49,857 bases of DNA from the sequence record OQ680139.1. One strand, given 5' to 3'. Each line of letters starts with the position of its first letter. Within the stretch, counting starts at the first letter, position 1. The notes under the pieces are model-generated. The model was given only the letters and a program-made list of their open reading frames with translations. It ran no database searches and was not told the origin of the DNA. This DNA is from Escherichia phage PH1062. This document shows positions 14,700-42,130 of this stretch, in pieces. The translations under genes and the position numbers were made by a program.

Positions 14700-15479
14700 T
14701 TATGTGATTAATTGTGATTGTTTGCTGGTTGACATATCTGGAATTGCCCAGCATCGGCAACCGTAAGGCTCACCAGGGAACGGGTGATCGCTTGAGATCT
14801 CAATGCGTTTACCTTCCCATTTCACGTGCTGCAATCGCTCGCGCTCATCCAGTTTACCATGCCAGAAATAGTGAGTTACTCCCGCATCATCCAGGCGCTG
14901 GCGCATCAGTACGCTGTTCCAGGTGGACACAATTCCACGCGAGCGATTCACGGTCCAGCCAGTATACACCTTGTATCGCTGCTTTAAAACTTCATCAATC
15001 TGCTGACTGGTTTTATTGCGCACGTTTTCGACGCGAATGTTTTGCGACCAGTCAGAGATGATGTCTCTCGCTAACTTTAAAATACTCGCCTCAGCCGAAC
15101 CGCGCCATTGCGATGACTTCTCGCGATACCATGACTCATTGGCATTCGCCCCCAGCACCCCAAGCAAGATTACAGACTGGTTCTTTCCGCCACCTGCTTT
15201 CTTTGCCACGTTGAGAAATTGCTTTGAGTTGAATTTATAAATAGTCAGCGCCAGCGACGGAAGTGTAGCAACAATCGCCGCGATAAGTCCGGATGCATAT
15301 TCCTCTAGCTCACTTTCTGCATCATTTATTTCTTCGTCCGAAGCGTCGAATCTCATACCGCCAGTAAGCGATCTGGCTTTCTTTGCCACCTCGCCAGCGA
15401 ATGTTGACAATGAGCGGCTAAGTTGCCGCTCGCTTGCTTCGGGATAACTCCATTGATTTACAATGCCGTTAACCTTCAT
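14700..15479 (-). CDS. Head morphogenesis protein (SPP1 gp7 / Mu F-like)
   Basis: 259 aa directly downstream of portal gene. Confidence 0.55.
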   Translation of the reverse strand: MKVNGIVNQWSYPEASERQLSRSLSTFAGEVAKKARSLTGGMRFDASDEEINDAESELEEYASGLIAAIVATLPSLALTIYKFNSKQFLNVAKKAGGGKNQSVILLGVLGANANESWYREKSSQWRGSAEASILKLARDIISDWSQNIRVENVRNKTSQQIDEVLKQRYKVYTGWTVNRSRGIVSTWNSVLMRQRLDDAGVTHYFWHGKLDERERLQHVKWEGKRIEISSDHPFPGEPYGCRCWAIPDMSTSKQSQLIT

Positions 15480-15481
15480 GA

Positions 15482-16756
15482 TTATTCCTCGTTGTTCACC
15501 TGCGGGTTAGTCGGTTCGATTTCAAGCTCCGGCGCTGGGCCTTGAATCTTGATAAAGTCTGCGATTGCCTCAAGTGTATCACGCGCCTCGTCACGGTCAA
15601 TGACCTGATCCGCCAATAGCTTTGAGATTGACTCAACGTTATTCTTCAACGTCTCGGATTGTTCTTTCTCGCTTGGCATTGATAGTGGCTCGAATCGAAC
15701 TGACCATTCCTCTTCCTGCACAATCATAGGAATTAACCACTCCAGAAGCGGCCTGTAATACTCGTTACGCTTGCGGTCAATCATCTTGTAGAAAGTCTCA
15801 AGCGCTGTGTTCTGGCTCGCTGACACGCCGCCTACGTTCTTATTCTTGAGGATAATCTCATGAATCTGTGAGTAGTTAACGATGCGGTCCATCTTCTTAT
15901 CAAGGAAAGCATCAACGCCGCCAATGTCAGAGTTAAGAACGTCGTATTCTTCGTCAGTGGCATCAATGCCAATAGTCCTTCCTACGCCGCTGTTATCATC
16001 AACCTGCGCAAGTCGAAGCCGTGCTGCGTAACGACCTTCGTCATCGTCGCACAAATCCGCCAACCCTTTAGCTTTCCATACGCCCTGCTGCTTACGGCGC
16101 AATAGCTGTGTGGCAAGTTCTTCGCAGTAGTTGTAGTCCAAAATGGCATCAATCAATCCCTTGCTCAACACCGATGCGCCCCATTCGTTATTTTGCGCAC
16201 GAATTGAGTTAGGCAATCGCTCGCCAGAGTTAACATAGACTCTCGTGTAGTGAACATCGTATTCCGGTACGCCTCCGCCAGGGTTGATGGTATAAATCTT
16301 CGGCATGCCATAGCGAGGGTTGCGCGCGTTCTTCTCTCGGTCCTTGATGCGAATCTGCTCTTTTTCGTATACGCGGATTGATTCAAGCTGAGCACCTTCC
16401 TTGATTGGTGATGTCAGGAGTCGGTTGTCACGGACGACGGCGACGATGGCGGAACCACCATAAAGCCGCTCCCATGAGAACGCCTCGACAATCTGCTTGT
16501 TCAGCTTCATGCCATCCCACAAAGATTTGAACGCCTTCTCATCCTTCACCCCGTCCAGGCCGAATCCAGGGAAAACCATTTCCTCTGGAATAACATCGAC
16601 AATTTTCTTAGCCATAGGATCATCAATGTAAAACTGCGTCACATACATCTGATCGTATAGCGATGCAAGCGCGCCTCCTGCCGTACCTTCACCCTTAAAC
16701 GTCTTGTTGTAAGAGTCGGTCTTAACGCTTTTTTTACTCATCTGTTTTTCTCCCAA
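15482..16756 (-). CDS. Portal protein
   Basis: 424 aa; position after terminase large subunit. Confidence 0.8.
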   Translation of the reverse strand: MGEKQMSKKSVKTDSYNKTFKGEGTAGGALASLYDQMYVTQFYIDDPMAKKIVDVIPEEMVFPGFGLDGVKDEKAFKSLWDGMKLNKQIVEAFSWERLYGGSAIVAVVRDNRLLTSPIKEGAQLESIRVYEKEQIRIKDREKNARNPRYGMPKIYTINPGGGVPEYDVHYTRVYVNSGERLPNSIRAQNNEWGASVLSKGLIDAILDYNYCEELATQLLRRKQQGVWKAKGLADLCDDDEGRYAARLRLAQVDDNSGVGRTIGIDATDEEYDVLNSDIGGVDAFLDKKMDRIVNYSQIHEIILKNKNVGGVSASQNTALETFYKMIDRKRNEYYRPLLEWLIPMIVQEEEWSVRFEPLSMPSEKEQSETLKNNVESISKLLADQVIDRDEARDTLEAIADFIKIQGPAPELEIEPTNPQVNNEE

Positions 16757-20783: not shown

Positions 20784-21302
20784 TTACACCTTTAATTTTC
20801 TTCCATGGTTTACATGGTAACCAAATTCAATTTCAGCACTAAGCCTAGCAGCCACCGCATCATCGAAGTTATTGAAATACCCAAGACTGATTGCCTTTCT
20901 ATCCTTTGAAATTACCGCCTTCCACTTCTTATCCCTGCTCTGCCATGACACTCCAGTTACACCGCTTTTGTTTCTAACGCTCCTTGATTGATTCATGCCG
21001 TTTTCGATATGCGTAACAAGCCTTAAATTTTCCATCCTGTTATCTGACCTACTGTGGTTTATATGATCAATCTGCATCCCTTCTGGTATTCTCCCCATTA
21101 CAGACTCCCATATAATCCTATGAGCCAAGTAAAGCCTATTTTCAAACCTAACCTTTATATAACCATCTCTTTTGCACTTGCATCCAGCTACCGATCCGAC
21201 AACTACCTTTCTGCTTAATTTAAATGCCCATATTAGGTCGCCGCTTGACTCATCATATGAAAGGTAATCATTTATATCAATCATAAATACATTCTCCATC
21301 AT
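20784..21302 (-). CDS. HNH homing endonuclease with AP2-type DNA-binding domain
   Basis: IDHINHSRSDNRMENLRLVTHIENG then NKSGVTGVSWQSRDKKWKAVI. Confidence 0.75.
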   Translation of the reverse strand: MMENVFMIDINDYLSYDESSGDLIWAFKLSRKVVVGSVAGCKCKRDGYIKVRFENRLYLAHRIIWESVMGRIPEGMQIDHINHSRSDNRMENLRLVTHIENGMNQSRSVRNKSGVTGVSWQSRDKKWKAVISKDRKAISLGYFNNFDDAVAARLSAEIEFGYHVNHGRKLKV

Positions 21303-21516
21303 CCCGCCTTCCGCATCTACCCTCTATGTATCCAGCAATCCAAATAAAACGAGAGCGCGATATAATGGTCGCTACGGCATCATGGTGCTTGGTAATAATT
21401 GAGGCAACCATCTTATCATCTTTGCGATCTTTCTTGCTCAGGTTGGCATACGCTGCGTTTAATTTCTTGGCCTTGGCCTTTACTGCGTTCATCTGCGGAT
21501 CGGTTAATCCAAACAT
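21277..21516 (-). CDS. Hypothetical protein
   Basis: 79 aa ORF; overlaps the HNH gene start. Confidence 0.35.
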   Translation of the reverse strand: MFGLTDPQMNAVKAKAKKLNAAYANLSKKDRKDDKMVASIITKHHDAVATIISRSRFIWIAGYIEGRCGRRDDGECIYD

Positions 21517-21895: not shown

Positions 21896-21940
21896 ACTAT
21901 ACCGCTACCCCGATTCTGAGTTTTAACAAAAAGTGCTATC
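21896..21940 (-). promoter_or_regulatory. Family promoter A: 20 bp element, 19 bp spacer, TATAGT
   Basis: Sense strand AATAGCACTTTTTGTTAAAA; -10 sits in the loop of inverted repeat GGGGTA/TACCCC; followed by CCCATCGAAACGAA. Confidence 0.55.
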
Positions 21941-25897: not shown

Positions 25898-26118
25898 AAA
25901 ACCCCCTTCTCAGCGCGGTGGGCCGCTTCCATCAGGTGACACGCCAGTTGGCGCGCCTGGTCTGGCGTGTACAGCATGTAAGTGCTTGGGTATGATTCTT
26001 CGTGAGGATTGAAGTCAAGGCGCACCTTGAAAGTCACACGATCATTGCTGTGAATCTTCACAGCCTCAATTTCGGCCTGCTCGTTGTAGTCGTCTGCAAT
26101 GCGCACTTTAGTGCTCAT
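25894..26118 (-). CDS. Small acidic protein, paralog family member 4
   Basis: 74 aa; VRLDFNPHEESYPSTYMLYTPDQARQLACHLMEAAHRAE. Confidence 0.6.
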   Translation of the reverse strand: MSTKVRIADDYNEQAEIEAVKIHSNDRVTFKVRLDFNPHEESYPSTYMLYTPDQARQLACHLMEAAHRAEKGVL

Positions 26119-26157
26119 AAATTACCCCTTAGTTGATTGTTTCACTTCAATGAGTGC

Positions 26158-26202
26158 ACTATAGCAAATGCACTCACGGCAGTTTTAACAAAAAGTGCTA
26201 TT
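26158..26202 (-). promoter_or_regulatory. Family promoter F: element, 19 bp, TATAGT
   Basis: AATAGCACTTTTTGTTAAAA; -10 in loop of TGAGTGCA/TGCACTCA; element contains the TAG stop of 26198..26398. Confidence 0.55.
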
Positions 26203-26398
26203 CTATCACCTTCACTACCTTCTCTTTGCGATACGGTGCGCCGGACTTATGCAGCCAGTAGCGGGCCTGGGTAAGAGTACCCATTTTCTCAACCGTTACC
26301 CACCAGAACCAGGCGACTCGCTTCTGCACGGCGAACCATATGACCGGATCGCTGAAAGCTGTCTCGGTCCTGATCATCACTATGCGATACTTCTTCAT
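26198..26398 (-). CDS. Hypothetical protein
   Basis: 66 aa Trp-rich ORF, start/stop-coupled to neighbours. Confidence 0.4.
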   Translation of the reverse strand: MKKYRIVMIRTETAFSDPVIWFAVQKRVAWFWWVTVEKMGTLTQARYWLHKSGAPYRKEKVVKVIE

Positions 26399-26601
26399 GC
26401 CTGGTCTCTCCCTAGCTGGTTGTTGGCCTTGTTGGCTGCTGACACCAGTGCCGCCGCCATTGCCAGTGCCTGATCTGGAGTTAGAAATACCATCTCATCG
26501 CTAGCCAGGATTTCAACTTGGTCACTCTCCGCGCCTACCTCAAAGTAATCAGCGTAAAGGCATTTTACAAACACTGGAAAATTGATGTTTTTGTTGCTCA
26601 T
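26395..26601 (-). CDS. Small acidic protein, paralog family member 3
   Basis: 68 aa; VEILASDEMVFLTPDQALAMAAALVSAANKA. Confidence 0.55.
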   Translation of the reverse strand: MSNKNINFPVFVKCLYADYFEVGAESDQVEILASDEMVFLTPDQALAMAAALVSAANKANNQLGRDQA

Positions 26602-26708
26602 ATATCACCTCTAAATGGGCCTGTAACGGCCCGTTATTTTACTTACCCAATCGCCCATGCGACTTGAGATTATGTCGGTAGAGCTGCATTACGTGCTCAT
26701 TATGGTGA

Positions 26709-26930
26709 CTACTCATCTGATTCTGCCTCCACTTCCTCAGCCGCCAGGATTAGCGCCGCCGCCAGCTCGCGAGCCTGCTCAGCTGTGTAGGCCATTGCAG
26801 TTCCACCACCATAACGAGAATCTGGTGAAAGGTCCAGGTGAACACGCTTACGCATCTTGCCGAATGGAATCTTAATCACGGATACTTCAGTTTCCTTATC
26901 CCAAGATGAATTGACTCGAATATCTTTCAT
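26709..26930 (-). CDS. Small acidic protein, paralog family member 2
   Basis: 73 aa; VHLDLSPDSRYGGGTAMAYTAEQARELAAALILAAEEVE. Confidence 0.6.
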   Translation of the reverse strand: MKDIRVNSSWDKETEVSVIKIPFGKMRKRVHLDLSPDSRYGGGTAMAYTAEQARELAAALILAAEEVEAESDE

Positions 26931-27139
26931 TGCTTTTCCGCCTCGTCCGCTGCCAGGATTAATGCTGCCGCTAATTTTCTAGCCGCGTCAGGTGAGTATT
27001 GCATCAGTGTCTGGCAATCTCCGTATTCGTCAGGATTGAAGTCTAGGTTAACAACATGCCCGCGAACGGTTCCCATCGTGACGCTGACCTCTGCTTGGTC
27101 AAAGTGAACATCGTCAATACGTACAGCTTCCATAATCAT
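26927..27139 (-). CDS. Small acidic protein, paralog family member 1 (start moved to internal Met)
   Basis: VNLDFNPDEYGDCQTLMQYSPDAARKLAAALILAADEAE; track start 27187 lies inside promoter G, so Met at MIMEAV with AAGAGG RBS is more likely. Confidence 0.55.
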   Translation of the reverse strand: MIMEAVRIDDVHFDQAEVSVTMGTVRGHVVNLDFNPDEYGDCQTLMQYSPDAARKLAAALILAADEAEKQ

Positions 27140-27163
27140 TTCCTCTTTGTTGTCGATATGGTA

Positions 27164-27208
27164 ATCATAGCTGACTACCCCACCCATTGTTTAACAATTC
27201 GTGCTATT
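27164..27208 (-). promoter_or_regulatory. Family promoter G: element, 20 bp, TATGAT
   Basis: AATAGCACGAATTGTTAAA variant. Confidence 0.5.
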
Positions 27209-27481: not shown

Positions 27482-27690
27482 CGAACGATTTCGAATTTAG
27501 CCATTATGACGCCAAGGCTTTTTATCATAAGAGCTTCACCTATCGTCTTCACTATGTACTCATTGCCATCAACCTTGATGTAGTATGAGCCATTAAAGCG
27601 AGTGATTGGCTTAGCCTTGTATATCCCACCATTCACGACTGAAAGGTTGTGGTGATTGGCTTGCCTTACATACACACATTTTATAAGCAT
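27463..27690 (-). CDS. Hypothetical protein
   Basis: 75 aa ending ...NSTNC. Confidence 0.5.
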   Translation of the reverse strand: MLIKCVYVRQANHHNLSVVNGGIYKAKPITRFNGSYYIKVDGNEYIVKTIGEALMIKSLGVIMAKFEIVRNSTNC

Positions 27691-28256
27691 TAATGCTCAC
27701 CATTCAGGAGAGATTTCGCTTTCCGGTAGAACTGGATGGCCTTCTCCACCTCATCGGCATCATAGCCATGAATCATGTCTGAGCTTGCCTGCAATTTGCT
27801 ATGAGATTTGCGCTCAACCGATCTCCATGAGTCGCACCACTTGTGAATGTCTCTCCCATACATGCCCACCAGGTATGGGTGTGCATATATCTTGTCACCA
27901 ATAAGGCAAATGATTCCAGCGTCCTGTAGTGATGGTAGGATGTTGTCAATCAGGTTATTCATTACTCCATTACGCTCGACGAACGGCTGGACCTTTCTGA
28001 TCGCCTCATATGTTGAGCGAACTCCCACAACGCCTTTTCCATTTATCGCTTGCTTCCAGATATTTTCAACCACGACGCATTGTTCACGATTTAGGTTTGC
28101 GCGACGCATAACTTCTACTTCGCACCAGTACTTTTGTGACTGTCGGTATCCGTTAGCATTGATTGCAATTCGTAGTGGTGGAAGCCCATCTTCCGTAGCA
28201 ATCTTCATAATCTGCTCATCTGTCAGCTTCTCTTCGTTAAAATCAAACATCCCCAT
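27690..28256 (-). CDS. Short paralog of the 30528..32111 NTPase (shares its N- and C-terminal domains, lacks the P-loop core)
   Basis: N-terminus MGMFDFNEEKLTDEQIMKIATEDGLPPLRIAINANGYRQSQ and segment INGKGVVGVRSTYEAIRKVQPF...LIGDKIYAHPYLVG match both ends of the 527 aa protein. Confidence 0.6.
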   Translation of the reverse strand: MGMFDFNEEKLTDEQIMKIATEDGLPPLRIAINANGYRQSQKYWCEVEVMRRANLNREQCVVVENIWKQAINGKGVVGVRSTYEAIRKVQPFVERNGVMNNLIDNILPSLQDAGIICLIGDKIYAHPYLVGMYGRDIHKWCDSWRSVERKSHSKLQASSDMIHGYDADEVEKAIQFYRKAKSLLNGEH

Positions 28257-28777
28257 TATTTCGTCTCCCTAATCATTTCCTGGTACATTTTGATTGCCTT
28301 GATGGCTCCTGTAATCTCATCGCCTTCAAACTCAGTCACGGATGGCATCAGCTTGAGTATTTTGACCTTAAAGTCGCTCACGGCCTTCTCTGCAATCTGG
28401 CCGTTTGCCTTCACTCGCTTTCCTGTCTGGATTGCGCCATCAACCAAAGACAGATAAGCACAACGAACCTCTACGTCATCACCGAAATCACCATCCTTAA
28501 TTGAAAGTTTTGCACGAACGTTTGCCGCCTGTATCTCTGGCATCCTGGCTACCGTATTGGCGACATATGACGCCTTCAGCTTTGACATGCTGTATCTGCC
28601 ACCTACATCCAGATCCTCACGACTTATGCCTCCCATATCACTAGATGTGAGGCCGTAAACCTGGCGAGCTATTAGATGGATTGGGACGTGGTAGCTGCGG
28701 TTCTCGGACTTGAGCGCTTGCTCCGCCATGTAGCGGACGACATCGCCCAGGCTTACGTGTTGATTATGATTTGACAT
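28256..28777 (-). CDS. Hypothetical protein, first gene of the leftward operon
   Basis: 173 aa; first ORF downstream of the sigma70-like promoter at 28820-28848. Confidence 0.6.
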   Translation of the reverse strand: MSNHNQHVSLGDVVRYMAEQALKSENRSYHVPIHLIARQVYGLTSSDMGGISREDLDVGGRYSMSKLKASYVANTVARMPEIQAANVRAKLSIKDGDFGDDVEVRCAYLSLVDGAIQTGKRVKANGQIAEKAVSDFKVKILKLMPSVTEFEGDEITGAIKAIKMYQEMIRETK

Positions 28778-28848: not shown

Positions 28849-29068
28849 GTGTTATTGATGCAAGTGTTCGACTTAGTTACGTTTTGCGACCTCTCGCCCC
28901 AGATATAGCTCAATGTAAAGTCTGCGTATAGTTTGTAGATAAGTATTTTTAGCAAATGGGCCCCTACATGACCTTTTATTCCTACAATGTCGTCATATTC
29001 CTACAGGTGTAGGAAAATATCATAGAAAACTATCGCAATATCACATATCCACTATCTACATTATCTAC

Positions 29069-29145
29069 ATATATATATATTAATAATAATAATATAGATA
29101 AATGGTTATTATATAAGGATATTTTAATGTAACCATGGCGTAATT
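29069..29145. repeat. AT-rich conserved block, copy 1
   Basis: (AT)n, AATAATAATAA, GATATTTTAATGTAAC and GCGTAA in the same order as at 47687-47757. Confidence 0.7.
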
Positions 29146-29410
29146 CAGCGTGATATGCGTACATGATTCCTACGGAGTGCTGGTGTGTCTACATGGCATA
29201 ACATGCATAACGCGTATGCGCTAGAAACGTGTGGCGGGAAAGTCCTACCAGGAGATCAAGGGATCAGATCTCACCCCATCATTCCCCCCATCAATGAATC
29301 ATTGCTCAATTCGCAACAATCGAAAACATCATTGCAAACGATGCAATATTGCTATATGTGCAATAGTGAAGTGAATTATTGCAATAGCTGCAACAATCCA
29401 TAAATCGAAC

Positions 29411-29456
29411 GAATAGCACTTTTTGCTAAAGACATAAATCATCATTCTGGTAATAT
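29411..29456 (+). promoter_or_regulatory. Family promoter I (rightward): element, 20 bp, TAATAT
   Basis: GAATAGCACTTTTTGCTAAA on the plus strand; first rightward-oriented copy after the AT-rich region. Confidence 0.5.
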
Positions 29457-29642
29457 GTATCTCAAGGAAGCAGTGAAGCGAACGCCAAGTAGCTACTTCC
29501 CAGAAGTCGAATCGTCCAGATGAAAAATGCTGGCGAGTGTTGAGAAAGGGCACGTTGAGTCACTTCCGAACAGGTAAACTCCTAGACACCTTCTCCGGCA
29601 GCAAAGTCTGACCGGGTTCTTCGAAAAAGCAGTGAAGGTATT

Positions 29643-29688
29643 GAATAGCACGAAATGTTAAAACAGAAGTGAAGAAAGCAGGTATAGT
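29643..29688 (+). promoter_or_regulatory. Family promoter I2 (rightward): element, 20 bp, TATAGT
   Basis: GAATAGCACGAAATGTTAAAA; 126 nt upstream of 29815. Confidence 0.5.
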
Positions 29689-29814
29689 CAGTACATAGAG
29701 AACGGGGTGGGAAGTAAAGAGCCGAACGGCCTCCTGATGGAACAGGATAACCACTAAAGCAGAGATGACATCAAAGCGAACCTCTAGCAAAGCACAGTAA
29801 ACCATTGACGAGAG

Positions 29815-30039
29815 ATGAAAATGAACCAGGATCTTAATAAAATTGCTTTCAACAATACCATCGCTGACATTGCTGCCAAGGTAGATCTATCCCGCAATCC
29901 CGTTAAGCAGATCGCTTCTGAGTGTGAGTTCTTCGCATCGCAGATTGAAGGTGACGAATACAAGAGAGTGTTTGCAGCCCTAAGTAAATGCAAAACACGC
30001 AAAGCAATGAGTATAATCATCAATAGCACGAATTGCTAA
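29815..30039 (+). CDS. Hypothetical protein
   Basis: 74 aa ending ...NSTNC, the last five codons being the family element. Confidence 0.5.
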   Translation: MKMNQDLNKIAFNNTIADIAAKVDLSRNPVKQIASECEFFASQIEGDEYKRVFAALSKCKTRKAMSIIINSTNC

Positions 30040-30066
30040 AGCCCTTCGGGGCTTTTCCTGTATATT
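30022..30066 (+). promoter_or_regulatory. Family promoter J (rightward): element, terminator-like hairpin spacer, TATATT
   Basis: AATAGCACGAATTGCTAAA; spacer GCCC-ttcg-GGGC plus TTTT; followed by CATCCCATCGAAACGAA; 36 nt to ATG 30103. Confidence 0.55.
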
Positions 30067-30527: not shown

Positions 30528-32111
30528 ATGTTTGATTTCAACGAAGATAAATTGTCAATCGATCAGGTCATGGCTGTAGCCGCTGCCGATAACCTGCCAC
30601 CTCTACGCGTAGCAATCAACGCGAACGGGTACAGGCAAAGCCAGTCATTCTGGAAAGCCCCAACAGAGATTGACTCAGGCGGTGACAAATATCCGGTAAT
30701 TTCACTTGGTAACGATTATGATGTCGTTGGTAAACTGTCAAGCAATGCCGCTCGTTCTGTTCAGTTCCCCGAGTCGTCCGCTTACATGCATTTCCTCGGA
30801 TGCATATCAGCCGCCATGCTGGGCCGATTTACGGTTGAGTATCACGGAACACAACAGCCTACCGCGCTGTACGTCGTAACCAGTCAGCCGCCATCGACGG
30901 GTAAATCAGCCATTAACTCACTTTCGCTGGCCCCGATGATCGCAGAGACTGAGCGACTCAACGAGATCAGAAAGCGTGACCGCAAGAAGATTATGGCTAA
31001 GCTCTCCGCTCTATCCAAGGAGATGAAGCAGGAGAAATCACCATCTGATATGGCGGCTCTGTTTGAGGAGAAAGAGGAGCTTGAAGAAAAACTTGAACGA
31101 CTCTGTGACATCGTTTTCCCCGTATCCGACACCACGCCGGAAGGTCTTGCGCGAATCAACAACCGCCAGGGAAACTTTGCAGTGATCTCGGATGAAGCAA
31201 CGAGCGTGAACTCACTGTTAGGCATGACCTATGGTGACGGCTCAAAGAAAACGAACAGCGAGCTTGTGCTTAAGGCGTGGGATGCTGGTAACGTATCTAT
31301 CGCCCGTGCGAACGCAGACAATAACATGAGCTTCATTGCGATGGGCTGCATATCTGTAATTGCACAGGATGAAACAATCAACGCGATCATGAATGCTGGT
31401 GCGCGTGGTATCGGTGTGTCAGAACGTTTCTTGCTTGTGCGTGAGAAGTCATTCCTTGGCGAGCGTGTATTCGTTGACGAAAAAGGAGAATCAACATACG
31501 AGCCTATTGATGGCGGACTCAAGGCGGACTACTTCCGTCTGGTCCATGAGATCATGAGCGAACACGAAGTCAACCTGACAGTAAGCACGTCGGCGATGAA
31601 ATATCTCAACCGTGCGCGTCAGGATATGGAACCTCACCTTGCGGACGGCGGGAAGTATTCACACACAATGCTTCGCGGCGCGCTGGGTAAGTTCGATAAG
31701 CAGGCTATCAGGATCGCGGCTGTTCTTCACACTGTGCGTAACTGGTTTAATCCCAATGGCGGGAGTCCGCAGAAGTCCAGAGAGATTGAGCTTGACACAA
31801 TGCAGGAAGCGGTAATTATGTTCCAGGAACTGAGTAAGACTTATCTGTCATCTGCAAACGCTGCTGGTCATGCTGGCGACCATGCGGAGATGAATAAGCT
31901 GATCGATATTCTGATCAAGCAAGGTAAGAACGGGAAAGGCGTTGTAGGTGTACGATCCCTATATGAAGCGGCTCGCAAGGTTAAACCCTTTGAAGGGCAA
32001 AGTGGTGTAATGACTCGCATCAAAGATCACCTGATCCCTATGCTTGATGAGAAGAACTACACGTGCCTGATTGGTGATAAAATTTACATTAATCCGCGAC
32101 TGCTGGGGTAA
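30528..32111 (+). CDS. P-loop NTPase of unknown function (putative replication-associated ATPase)
   Basis: 527 aa; Walker A QPPSTGKSA, Walker B-like FAVISDEA; termini shared with 27690..28256. Confidence 0.55.
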   Translation: MFDFNEDKLSIDQVMAVAAADNLPPLRVAINANGYRQSQSFWKAPTEIDSGGDKYPVISLGNDYDVVGKLSSNAARSVQFPESSAYMHFLGCISAAMLGRFTVEYHGTQQPTALYVVTSQPPSTGKSAINSLSLAPMIAETERLNEIRKRDRKKIMAKLSALSKEMKQEKSPSDMAALFEEKEELEEKLERLCDIVFPVSDTTPEGLARINNRQGNFAVISDEATSVNSLLGMTYGDGSKKTNSELVLKAWDAGNVSIARANADNNMSFIAMGCISVIAQDETINAIMNAGARGIGVSERFLLVREKSFLGERVFVDEKGESTYEPIDGGLKADYFRLVHEIMSEHEVNLTVSTSAMKYLNRARQDMEPHLADGGKYSHTMLRGALGKFDKQAIRIAAVLHTVRNWFNPNGGSPQKSREIELDTMQEAVIMFQELSKTYLSSANAAGHAGDHAEMNKLIDILIKQGKNGKGVVGVRSLYEAARKVKPFEGQSGVMTRIKDHLIPMLDEKNYTCLIGDKIYINPRLLG

Positions 32112-42110: not shown

Positions 42111-42130
42111 TTTAGCAATTCGTGCTATTT
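42111..42130 (-). promoter_or_regulatory. Family element in reverse orientation at the tail fibre promoter (operator-like position)
   Basis: TTTAGCAATTCGTGCTATTT on the plus strand between two plus-strand genes; ends 19 nt before ATG 42149. Confidence 0.45.

Follow-up and report, generated by a model that had tools for sequence, protein, structure and literature searches.

We confirmed that positions 29457-29814 of Escherichia phage PH1062 (sequence record OQ680139.1) form a non-coding stretch behind two promoters of one family, as had been noticed in an original prediction made from the sequence. The key feature which that prediction overlooked is a core of 90 nucleotides (nt) at 29509-29598, common to phages of Seuratvirus and Vequintavirinae. 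The core passes between these unrelated coliphages and takes an accessory slot that heads early transcription units. It is non-coding, lies in a promoter context, is conserved across families and has a predicted fold with compensatory changes. We tentatively read it as a horizontally mobile accessory RNA that functions independently of the downstream gene, for example by hijacking an E. coli factor or serving as a sponge or decoy for one. The window referred to below is the whole stretch of DNA analysed, 49,857 nt in length, which is a T1-like siphovirus genome of the Drexlerviridae with BUCT-XGG-1 (Nouzillyvirus) and Rtp as its nearest relatives.

Distribution and setting of the 90-nt core

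The core came to light in a blastn search of 29400-29830 against phage records, 12 of 50,697 of which carried it at 83-98% identity. Four carriers are Drexlerviridae, and these T1-like records matched most of the stretch in that search; the region 29457-29814 is ~90% identical to BUCT-XGG-1, Rtp and ZL19. Three are siphoviruses of Seuratvirus (SLUR75, WildeMaa/Bas23 and SA80RD), with a ~90-nt match at 82-92%, and five are myoviruses of Vequintavirinae (A7_1, A5-4, A73, LTH01 and UPEC06), with an identity like that of the Seuratvirus match. When the core was searched by itself at E <= 1, the same 12 carriers and no lambdoid phage were returned, the presence of HK022 in the collection being unconfirmed. 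A covariance model of the core (R1) found exactly one copy per genome, at 117 bits, and 71 of the 98 alignment columns are invariant across the three phage families. Within each lineage the carriers are a small minority of the phages.

Further members were sought by six pattern scans of IMG/VR, one JGI metagenome scan and one GTDB genome scan, with model R1 run on the loci returned; Rtp alone was recovered by the scans for the core. Blastn against 5,426 E. coli genomes and 72,556 plasmids gave no match to the element, and no description of it was found in the literature by phage names, topic or exact sequence words. The covariance-model search proposed in the original prediction matched no family (Rfam 15 at gathering score, whole window). 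Ranked by E-value over 29300-29900, the best Rfam matches stood at 0.95 or above and were eukaryotic small nucleolar and long non-coding RNA models together with the bacterial small RNA (sRNA) ES003, all far below gathering. ARAGORN called no genes for transfer RNA (tRNA) or transfer-messenger RNA (tmRNA) in the window. Tandem repeats of ~34-45 nt, as in type III antitoxins or pseudo-ToxI, are absent from the core, with only three dispersed 14-nt GAAG-type repeats seen, and no intrinsic terminator with a U tail, as in Hfq-type sRNAs, ends the unit in PH1062, A7_1 or SA80RD.

Several candidates were dropped after inspection by eye, namely an ops/RfaH site, boxA, a K-turn, a T-loop, a hammerhead core and a tRNA anticodon-loop mimic, and likewise a CsrA sponge, for which the GGA motifs were too few. 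The 16S and 23S RNAs were compared with the element by a shared-word check only. Two identities of 10 nt with stable RNAs were recorded, AAGGAAGCAG (29464-29473) with the 3' strand of domain IV of 4.5S RNA and GGTAAACTCC (29574-29583) with RNase P RNA; about two shared words of this length are expected by chance over the stable-RNA targets tested.

In every carrier the core lies in unannotated DNA, and no coding sequence is annotated over it in any carrier record. Its orientation is always that of the downstream genes, and it always stands just downstream of a strong sigma-70 promoter, heading a transcription unit. The settings in the three lineages are as follows.

PH1062 and T1-like carriers: upstream, family promoter I; downstream, promoter I2, leader B and the first gene
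Seuratvirus: upstream, TAGACA-17-TACTAT in a divergent intergenic region; downstream, ~80 nt and then the first rightward gene, with no second promoter
A7_1 (Vequintavirinae), upstream: TTGACA-17-TATTAT, an 11/12 match, preceded by a hairpin and T run read by eye
A7_1, downstream: a second 11/12 promoter, then a small gene, within a long array of small early genes

The elements of the PH1062 unit that matter for this comparison are these.

29412-29456, + strand: promoter I, with motif AATAGCACTTTTTGCTAAAG at 29412-29431 and an extended -10, TGgTAATAT, whose hexamer is at 29451-29456; predicted start ~29464
29509-29598, + strand: conserved 90-nt core
29644-29688, + strand: promoter I2, with its motif at 29644-29663 (AATAGCACGAAATGTTAAA at 29644-29662) and -10 TATAGT at 29683-29688; predicted start ~29695
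29695-29790, + strand: leader B, a second conserved non-coding segment, present only in the four T1-like carriers
29815-30039, + strand: first protein gene, rtp75-like, 74 amino acids (aa), 42% aa identity to Rtp75

Comparison with phages that lack the core showed what else the same position can hold. More than 35 other T1-like records keep promoter I, match it alone and diverge after it; in GaoY1-9D and OzMSK the first gene begins ~60 nt past promoter I, and the gene of GaoY1-9D in that slot is PAPS-reductase-like. Among Seuratvirus phages, the promoter of SA80RD is common to Greed and slur01 as far as the -10, where homology ends. Greed and slur01 have one or two small ORFan genes where SLUR75 and SA80RD have the RNA unit, and homology restarts at the start codon of the next gene after the variable slot. 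As the break falls at the -10 and start site, the unit therefore begins at the transcription start site. By comparison of these genomes, the slot is a variable cassette that otherwise holds accessory protein genes. The downstream genes of the three families are mutually non-homologous, and when all open reading frames (ORFs) of PH1062 were compared with all those in the 16-22 kb that surround the element in WildeMaa and A7_1, no shared protein emerged beside it, within ~8 kb.

The two tandem promoters firing rightward into the stretch, as originally proposed, are credible, since they belong to a 17-member family with a fixed offset between motif and -10. For the dyad TAGCA-N5-TGCTA we counted 21 occurrences in the window, where 1.6 would be expected. 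Seventeen copies have the oriented motif AATAGCAC-N4-TG[CT]TAAA, always in the direction of the genes, and a hexamer like TATAGT or TATAAT lies exactly 38 nt from the motif start in 14 of the 17 and at 37 nt in two more. Lacking a -35 at 17 bp, these promoters escape a generic sigma-70 scan. With its centre near -45 to -50, the dyad resembles a site to which an activator or the alpha C-terminal domain would bind. A promoter family of T1-like phages, AATAGCAC-N4-TGCTAAA with its -10 at a fixed 38-nt offset, is thus defined here. Where another family copy is followed by a gene, 24-43 nt separate its -10 from the first ORF that has a Shine-Dalgarno and at least 40 codons. The corresponding distances are 358 nt for promoter I and 126 nt for I2, and the stretch is therefore a true outlier. 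Other copies of the family include those at 21939 (-), 22337 (-), 23692 (-), 30023 (+) and 47858 (+). Two motif copies, at 42128 (-) and 12825 (+), show no -10 at the usual offset, and no gene is close to either; the former leads into a GC-rich hairpin, AACCGCCCGAAGACGGTT.

Conservation, coding potential and predicted fold

Between PH1062 and Rtp or ZL19, identity is 93% in the 5' module that precedes the core, 95-98% in the core and 93-94% in leader B, against ~55% at the nucleotide level and 42-44% at the aa level in the next gene. SLUR75 and SA80RD are likewise nearly identical in the core, and their downstream genes share 48% aa identity. Between families the flanks of the core are unalignable, save for short blocks of the 5' module. 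Within an older, diverged unit the core thus stands out as a conserved island, and this argues for purifying selection rather than recent transfer alone.

The original description of the stretch as non-coding stood, as no ORF is conserved in it, although the statement that no ORF exceeds ~16 codons did not. On the + strand an ORF of 22 codons opens at ATG 29455, before the predicted start site of the transcript, and one of 24 codons at GTG 29537, and - strand ORFs across the stretch have 52-81 codons. None of these is conserved among the carriers, and the - strand ORFs vary from one carrier to another. SLUR75 and WildeMaa have a 1-nt insertion that puts every frame out of register; together with stop codons it breaks all frames across the core, which excludes coding across it. 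Apart from a single ORF of seven codons, no ORF remained in frame across the core homologues when a small protein gene was looked for.

29520-29543, + strand: predicted 7-codon mini-ORF, ATG AAA AAT GCT GGC GAG TGT TGA (MKNAGEC*), present in all 11 homologues as MK[NK]AG[EK]C*

The core is predicted to fold into two hairpins within ~85 nt, beginning 45-105 nt past the predicted start site. RNAalifold and an independently hand-drawn structure agreed on the following parts, all on the + strand.

29516-29519/29530-29533: P0 hairpin with a 10-nt A-rich loop, followed by an 8-nt linker
29542-29549/29589-29595: P1, with one bulge
Between P1 and P2: predicted 7x7 internal loop, GCACGUU / CUAGACA
29557-29559/29579-29581: P2 (predicted)
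29563-29567/29573-29577: P3, closed by pentaloop GAACA at 29568-29572 (GAAnA across carriers)

The start codon of the mini-ORF falls in the loop of P0, and its stop codon overlaps the 5' strand of P1. Over the alignment, 94.7% of the cells at paired positions are paired, compared with 41-64% when the partners are slid. Both partners changed in three pairs, one in P0 (A-U to G-C) and two in P3 (G-C to C-G, C-G to U-A). A G-U wobble arose in one P3 pair, and outside the T1-like phages all P3 substitutions keep pairing. The insertion of SLUR75 is located in the bulge of P1, and variation of the pentaloop is confined to its fourth base (C, U or A). Alternative local pairings are available, of GUGU with GCAC against P1 and of the Seuratvirus 5' flank with the 3' strand of the core.

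The transcript was also assessed as a structured whole, and on this point the original suggestion of a structured leader found no support: the 353-nt transcript folds no better than its shuffles (z = +0.8). A globally structured RNA was therefore rejected, the 353-nt and 182-nt transcripts and all versions of the core folding like shuffled sequence. Purines make up 61-63% of the unit in all lineages, and in PH1062 almost all 78-nt windows of the unit have more G than C. Being purine-rich with G above C, it is expected to be a poor Rho substrate, as befits an untranslated RNA.

Candidate functions of the core

The favoured reading, an accessory RNA acting apart from the gene behind it, would work as follows. 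Host RNA polymerase would start at promoter I (~29464) at the onset of infection, giving a purine-rich RNA without a translated reading frame. The core would fold into the short P0 hairpin and the long interrupted hairpin (P1, the 7x7 loop, P2, and P3 with its GAAnA pentaloop), and would be recognised sequence-specifically by an E. coli macromolecule as an aptamer-like binding platform or decoy. The cassette would occupy the accessory-gene slot behind the first early promoter and be indifferent in function to the gene that follows. We infer that the core acts as RNA from its constant orientation, the start of the unit at the transcription start site, the compensatory stem changes and a purine-rich composition with more G than C. 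The core may also bind a host macromolecule and may act in trans. An autonomous accessory RNA is favoured because the element is sporadic in each lineage, replaces accessory protein genes and, in two lineages, has a full promoter downstream.

Known accessory cargo of lytic phages is almost all protein, and here ~90 nt of non-coding sequence is better conserved than the neighbouring genes. Siphoviruses of two families and a large myovirus have the element in an early-gene slot, a pattern which suggests a host-directed RNA able to function whatever the genome around it. Possible, though on balance doubtful, is the more specific proposal of a portable, protein-independent device, either a new class of RNA, without sequence relationship to put, that would reprogram E. 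coli RNA polymerase, or a decoy against a host defence or takeover target, swapped between unrelated lytic coliphages as an 'RNA moron'. That the slots which receive it otherwise hold small counter-defence proteins is part of this proposal and equally doubtful. As Rtp and WildeMaa (Bas23 of the BASEL collection) are described isolates, the element should be testable.

Several results weigh against an autonomous accessory RNA. Its transcription is predicted from the promoters alone. Duplex energies of the element against E. coli tRNA-Glu, 5S, 4.5S, 6S, RNase P RNA and the tmRNA region were at chance level (z -0.9 to +0.9). No intrinsic terminator was found on the + strand between core and next gene in PH1062, A7_1 or SA80RD, and because there is neither a terminator nor a conserved 3'-end signal, a discrete trans-acting species would need processing. 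Read-through from the core into the downstream genes is likely, and would fit a role in cis equally well. Part of the high identity could reflect recent transfer and not selection. The evidence for the fold comes from eight distinct sequences of three lineages, the structure having been derived from those same sequences; P1 and P2 are neither supported nor contradicted by covariation because neither ever varies, and P3 of the T1-like phages has two mismatches. Furthermore, the core folds no more stably than shuffled sequence (z +0.25 to +1.4). Average stability combined with invariant unpaired runs points to sequence-specific recognition, not merely to a stable hairpin. The initial choice of 'small RNA, structured leader or RNA decoy' went in the right direction, towards a non-coding and probably structured conserved element behind two credible promoters, but was unspecific, and these three are not separable by sequence data alone.

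The strongest rival, which we consider unlikely, is a cis-acting modifier like put or nut, in which the nascent core would bind its own RNA polymerase, alone or with a host factor. The supposed effect, equally unlikely in our view, would be early read-through of terminators or pauses such as the hairpin at 30038-30058. A sigma-70 promoter always stands directly before the core, which opens an early unit at its 5' end and is separated from the genes by no terminator, and terminators lie downstream in PH1062 and, by that record's annotation, in SA80RD. Its two predicted stem-loops in ~85 nt with invariant unpaired bases may recall put, P3 is shaped like boxB (5-bp stem, GAAnA loop, only the fourth base variable), and dependence on host polymerase alone would suit unrelated phages, all users of that enzyme, and any following gene. 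However, T1-like and Vequintavirinae carriers have a complete second promoter between the element and the next gene, and almost every T1-like gene has its own family promoter, so that antitermination would add little. Sporadic occurrence, in a small minority of each lineage, is not what a core regulatory device would be expected to show. No lambdoid record is similar in sequence, no boxA could be made out by eye, and neither a nearby N-like, arginine-rich protein common to carriers nor a conserved pause element of the -10 type was found.

It seems improbable that the core serves RNA processing or stability, like the RNase III or RNase E sites of the T7 early leader, by trimming or protecting early mRNA and setting the downstream 5' end. 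The long interrupted hairpin from P1 through P3, of ~26 layers, resembles irregular T7 RNase III hairpins in outline, its leader position between promoter and genes is suitable, and a mechanism using a host enzyme would be portable among phages. Such sites usually recur between cistrons, however, whereas the core is present once per genome; at 7, 3 and 5 bp its helices are short, and of no particular stability, 90 bases with invariant loops exceed what generic sites need, and the equal conservation of P0 and the 5' linker is left unexplained.

We give a similarly low probability to a functionless hitch-hiker, that is, recently transferred leader DNA riding on mosaic exchange at promoters. Only 12 records carry the core, the IMG/VR scans gave only Rtp and the JGI metagenomes and GTDB genomes gave none; phage mosaicism is common at conserved promoters, and a protein of ~86 aa, 59% identical between PH1062 and A7_1, indicates that small genes are swapped too. 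Against this, between families the core alone is conserved while the rest of a homologous unit has diverged beyond alignment, substitutions are clustered in one stem and compensated, and three different genome backgrounds have retained the element where protein genes would otherwise stand.

Less probable again is a DNA-level site, part of a pac or origin region or an operator. The core adjoins a divergent intergenic region with AT-rich palindromes and TGCAATA-type repeats, several T1-like records were opened within a few hundred bases of it, and its long invariant runs and a GTTGAG direct repeat could bind protein. Terminases, replication proteins and regulators are lineage-specific, however, whereas the core occurs in three families and is absent from most of their members. 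In Vequintavirinae it lies inside an array of small early genes, its orientation to promoter and genes is fixed, the unit starts at the transcription start site, and its hairpins are preserved by compensatory changes.

A translated leader, in which the 7-codon ORF at 29520-29543 acts through its peptide or as a switch that senses ribosomes and remodels P0 and P1, is the least probable. In its favour, all 11 sequences keep the ORF intact, third codon positions account for two of the three variable sites, the stop codon reaches into the 5' strand of P1, a near-consensus Shine-Dalgarno (GGAAGGUGA) precedes the ORF by 10 nt in Seuratvirus, and the alternative pairings described above (GUGU/GCAC, and the Seuratvirus 5' flank with the core 3' strand) are available. 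However, the Shine-Dalgarno is unusable in the Vequintavirinae versions and weak in the T1-like ones, conservation extends 55 nt past the stop codon, no terminator or sequestered start site was found for a switch to control, and the synonymous GCT/GCC change is explained by RNA pairing because the paired base changes with it (CCAG/CUGG to CCGG/CCGG).

Flanking features and likeness to known systems

The remaining features of the unit and its surroundings in PH1062 are as follows.

29464-29508, + strand: 5' module, GAAGCAGUGA ... AAGUA ... GAAGUCGAAUC, including a non-conserved palindrome at 29488-29497
29594-29616, + strand: 3' hairpin, UCCGG-N13-CCGGG followed by GUUCUUCG; not a terminator (none called)
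29465-29478, 29624-29637 and 29661-29674, + strand: three copies of an A(G/A)CAG(T/A)GAAG-type repeat (AGCAGTGAAG-type; repeat family D2)
30038-30058, + strand: terminator-like hairpin, AAAGCCC-UUCG-GGGCUUU plus U, read from the sequence, inside a third family promoter

Two of the smaller features pointed out in the original prediction proved to be of limited reach. Richness in GAAG-type repeats holds locally, with the three copies listed; over the window it is only marginal, with 21 matches to the repeat word against 13 expected, a count reached in 4 of 100 shuffles. The palindrome AGTAGCTACT is present at 29488-29497, but it is not a conserved feature because Rtp and ZL19 have AGTAGCTGCC there. 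The 5' module that contains it is duplicated in the Seuratvirus and Vequintavirinae versions. Its two-block pattern, GAAGCAGTGA followed 20-50 nt on by GAAGTCGAATC, was found in PH1062, in the Vequintavirinae carriers and in Grimontviridae phages of Salmonella that have no core; one IMG/VR contig of 2.9 million, Grimontviridae-like, also has it. In such phages, for example Salmonella phage SE131 (positions 76-2139 of its record), more than 2 kb at the left end is unannotated, and a TAGACA-17-TATAGT promoter is followed there by the 5' module (GAAGCAGTGATG..AAAGTA..GAAGTCGAATCCGAC) without a core.

In SA80RD the equivalent of the 3' hairpin shows a compensatory change, from CCGG/CCGG to CCGA/UCGG. 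Leader B contains a hairpin, CCUG-AUGGAA-CAGG, and several GGA motifs, and folds as shuffled sequence does (z = +0.2). Its GAACAGGATAACCACTA partly echoes GAACAGGTAAACTCCTA of the core (repeat family D6), and a short ORF, M(T/A)SKRTS..., reaches the gene start in all T1-like carriers.

The first gene, which the original prediction placed at 29815, probably starts at ATG 29821, which is likelier than 29815 because a GAGAG Shine-Dalgarno, read directly from the sequence, abuts the latter. A leader specific to this gene was rejected, as rtp75-like genes of Klebsiella, Pantoea and Dhillonvirus phages have gaps of 55-66 nt without the element. The hairpin at 30038-30058, which a strict terminator scan did not call, would be the probable 3' end of transcripts from promoters I and I2. 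The stretch forms the right flank of a divergent intergenic zone, in which the leftward genes end at 28777 and a rightward operon begins at 29815/29821. This operon includes a 527-aa DUF3987 protein (30528-32111, + strand), whose Rtp counterpart is annotated as a DNA helicase. A 188-aa ORF at 27690-28256 (- strand) is a 'mini' paralogue of it, with 69% identity over the N-terminal 42 aa and 45% over the C-terminal 92 aa, and lacks the central DUF3987 domain; the two genes point apart across the divergent region.

Upstream of promoter I, 29030-29410 contains overlapping AT-rich palindromes (29053-29115) and repeated motifs of the TTGCAATA/ATTGCAA type (29295-29403). Several T1-like GenBank records were opened within or beside this zone, which may be an operator, origin or pac region. 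Three HNH-endonuclease-like ORFs of ~180 aa lie on the - strand, one near 20790-21320, with 34-45% identity to homing endonucleases of the Seuratvirus carriers, and none adjoins the RNA element in PH1062. Three paralogues of the ~86-aa protein lie on the - strand near 26000-27200, and show up to 59% identity to a Vequintavirinae protein at 15470-15679 of the A7_1 stretch compared. This identity between PH1062 and A7_1 shows that small early genes too pass between these lineages.

The element is a candidate for an RNA family not described before, which resembles known early-leader RNAs of phages in position and is related to none of them. One of the nearest parallels is put of HK022, ~70 nt in two stem-loops just downstream of PL, which is protein-independent and binds the zinc-binding domain of beta' (PMC9378689). 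Both have an early sigma-70 promoter upstream; the core may resemble put as a compact RNA of 70-90 nt with two predicted stem-loops and important unpaired bases and, like put, would rely on E. coli machinery alone and be indifferent to downstream genes. They differ in that put has two long stems with a triplex (PMC9378689), whereas the core has a short hairpin with an A-rich loop and a long interrupted one. Furthermore, the core is without sequence similarity to put, sporadic and accessory, and followed by a second promoter in two of the three lineages.

The likeness to lambda nut lies in the early-leader position and in P3, whose 5-bp stem, with two covarying pairs, and purine-rich loop of GAACA, GAAUA or GAAAA match a boxB hairpin with its GNRA-like pentaloop. 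The boxB loops of lambda, GAAAA and GAAGA, also vary at the fourth base. However, the conserved region of the core is six times the length of boxB, no boxA (CGCUCUUA-like) was seen by eye in any version of the unit, and the carriers share no proteins within ~8 kb, the only shared ones being HNH endonucleases elsewhere. RNase III sites in the early region of T7 are irregular hairpins with an internal loop. The core resembles R0.3 and R1.1 as an irregular hairpin between early promoters and genes, with tandem promoters beside a structured non-coding stretch; it differs in being single-copy, in its shorter helices and larger internal loop and in showing no sequence similarity to them.

Phage RNA decoys and sRNAs (pseudo-ToxI of PhiTE, anti-CRISPR RNAs, DicF and AgvB) share with the core the nature of non-coding accessory cargo, horizontal spread and promoters of their own. 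The core differs from them in having no tandem 36-nt repeats, no similarity to CRISPR repeats, no Hfq-type terminator with a U tail, and neither similarity nor complementarity that could be detected to the genomes or plasmids of E. coli. In the promoter-early stem-loop (PeSL) cassettes of T4-type phages, recombination at promoter sequences shuffles modules. There too the cassette boundaries are promoters, although the cargo here is an RNA element and not an ORF. Two of the lineages have a copy of their own promoter type on either side of the unit, which suggests its insertion or exchange by recombination at promoters, and the analysis as a whole shows cassette exchange at such sites.

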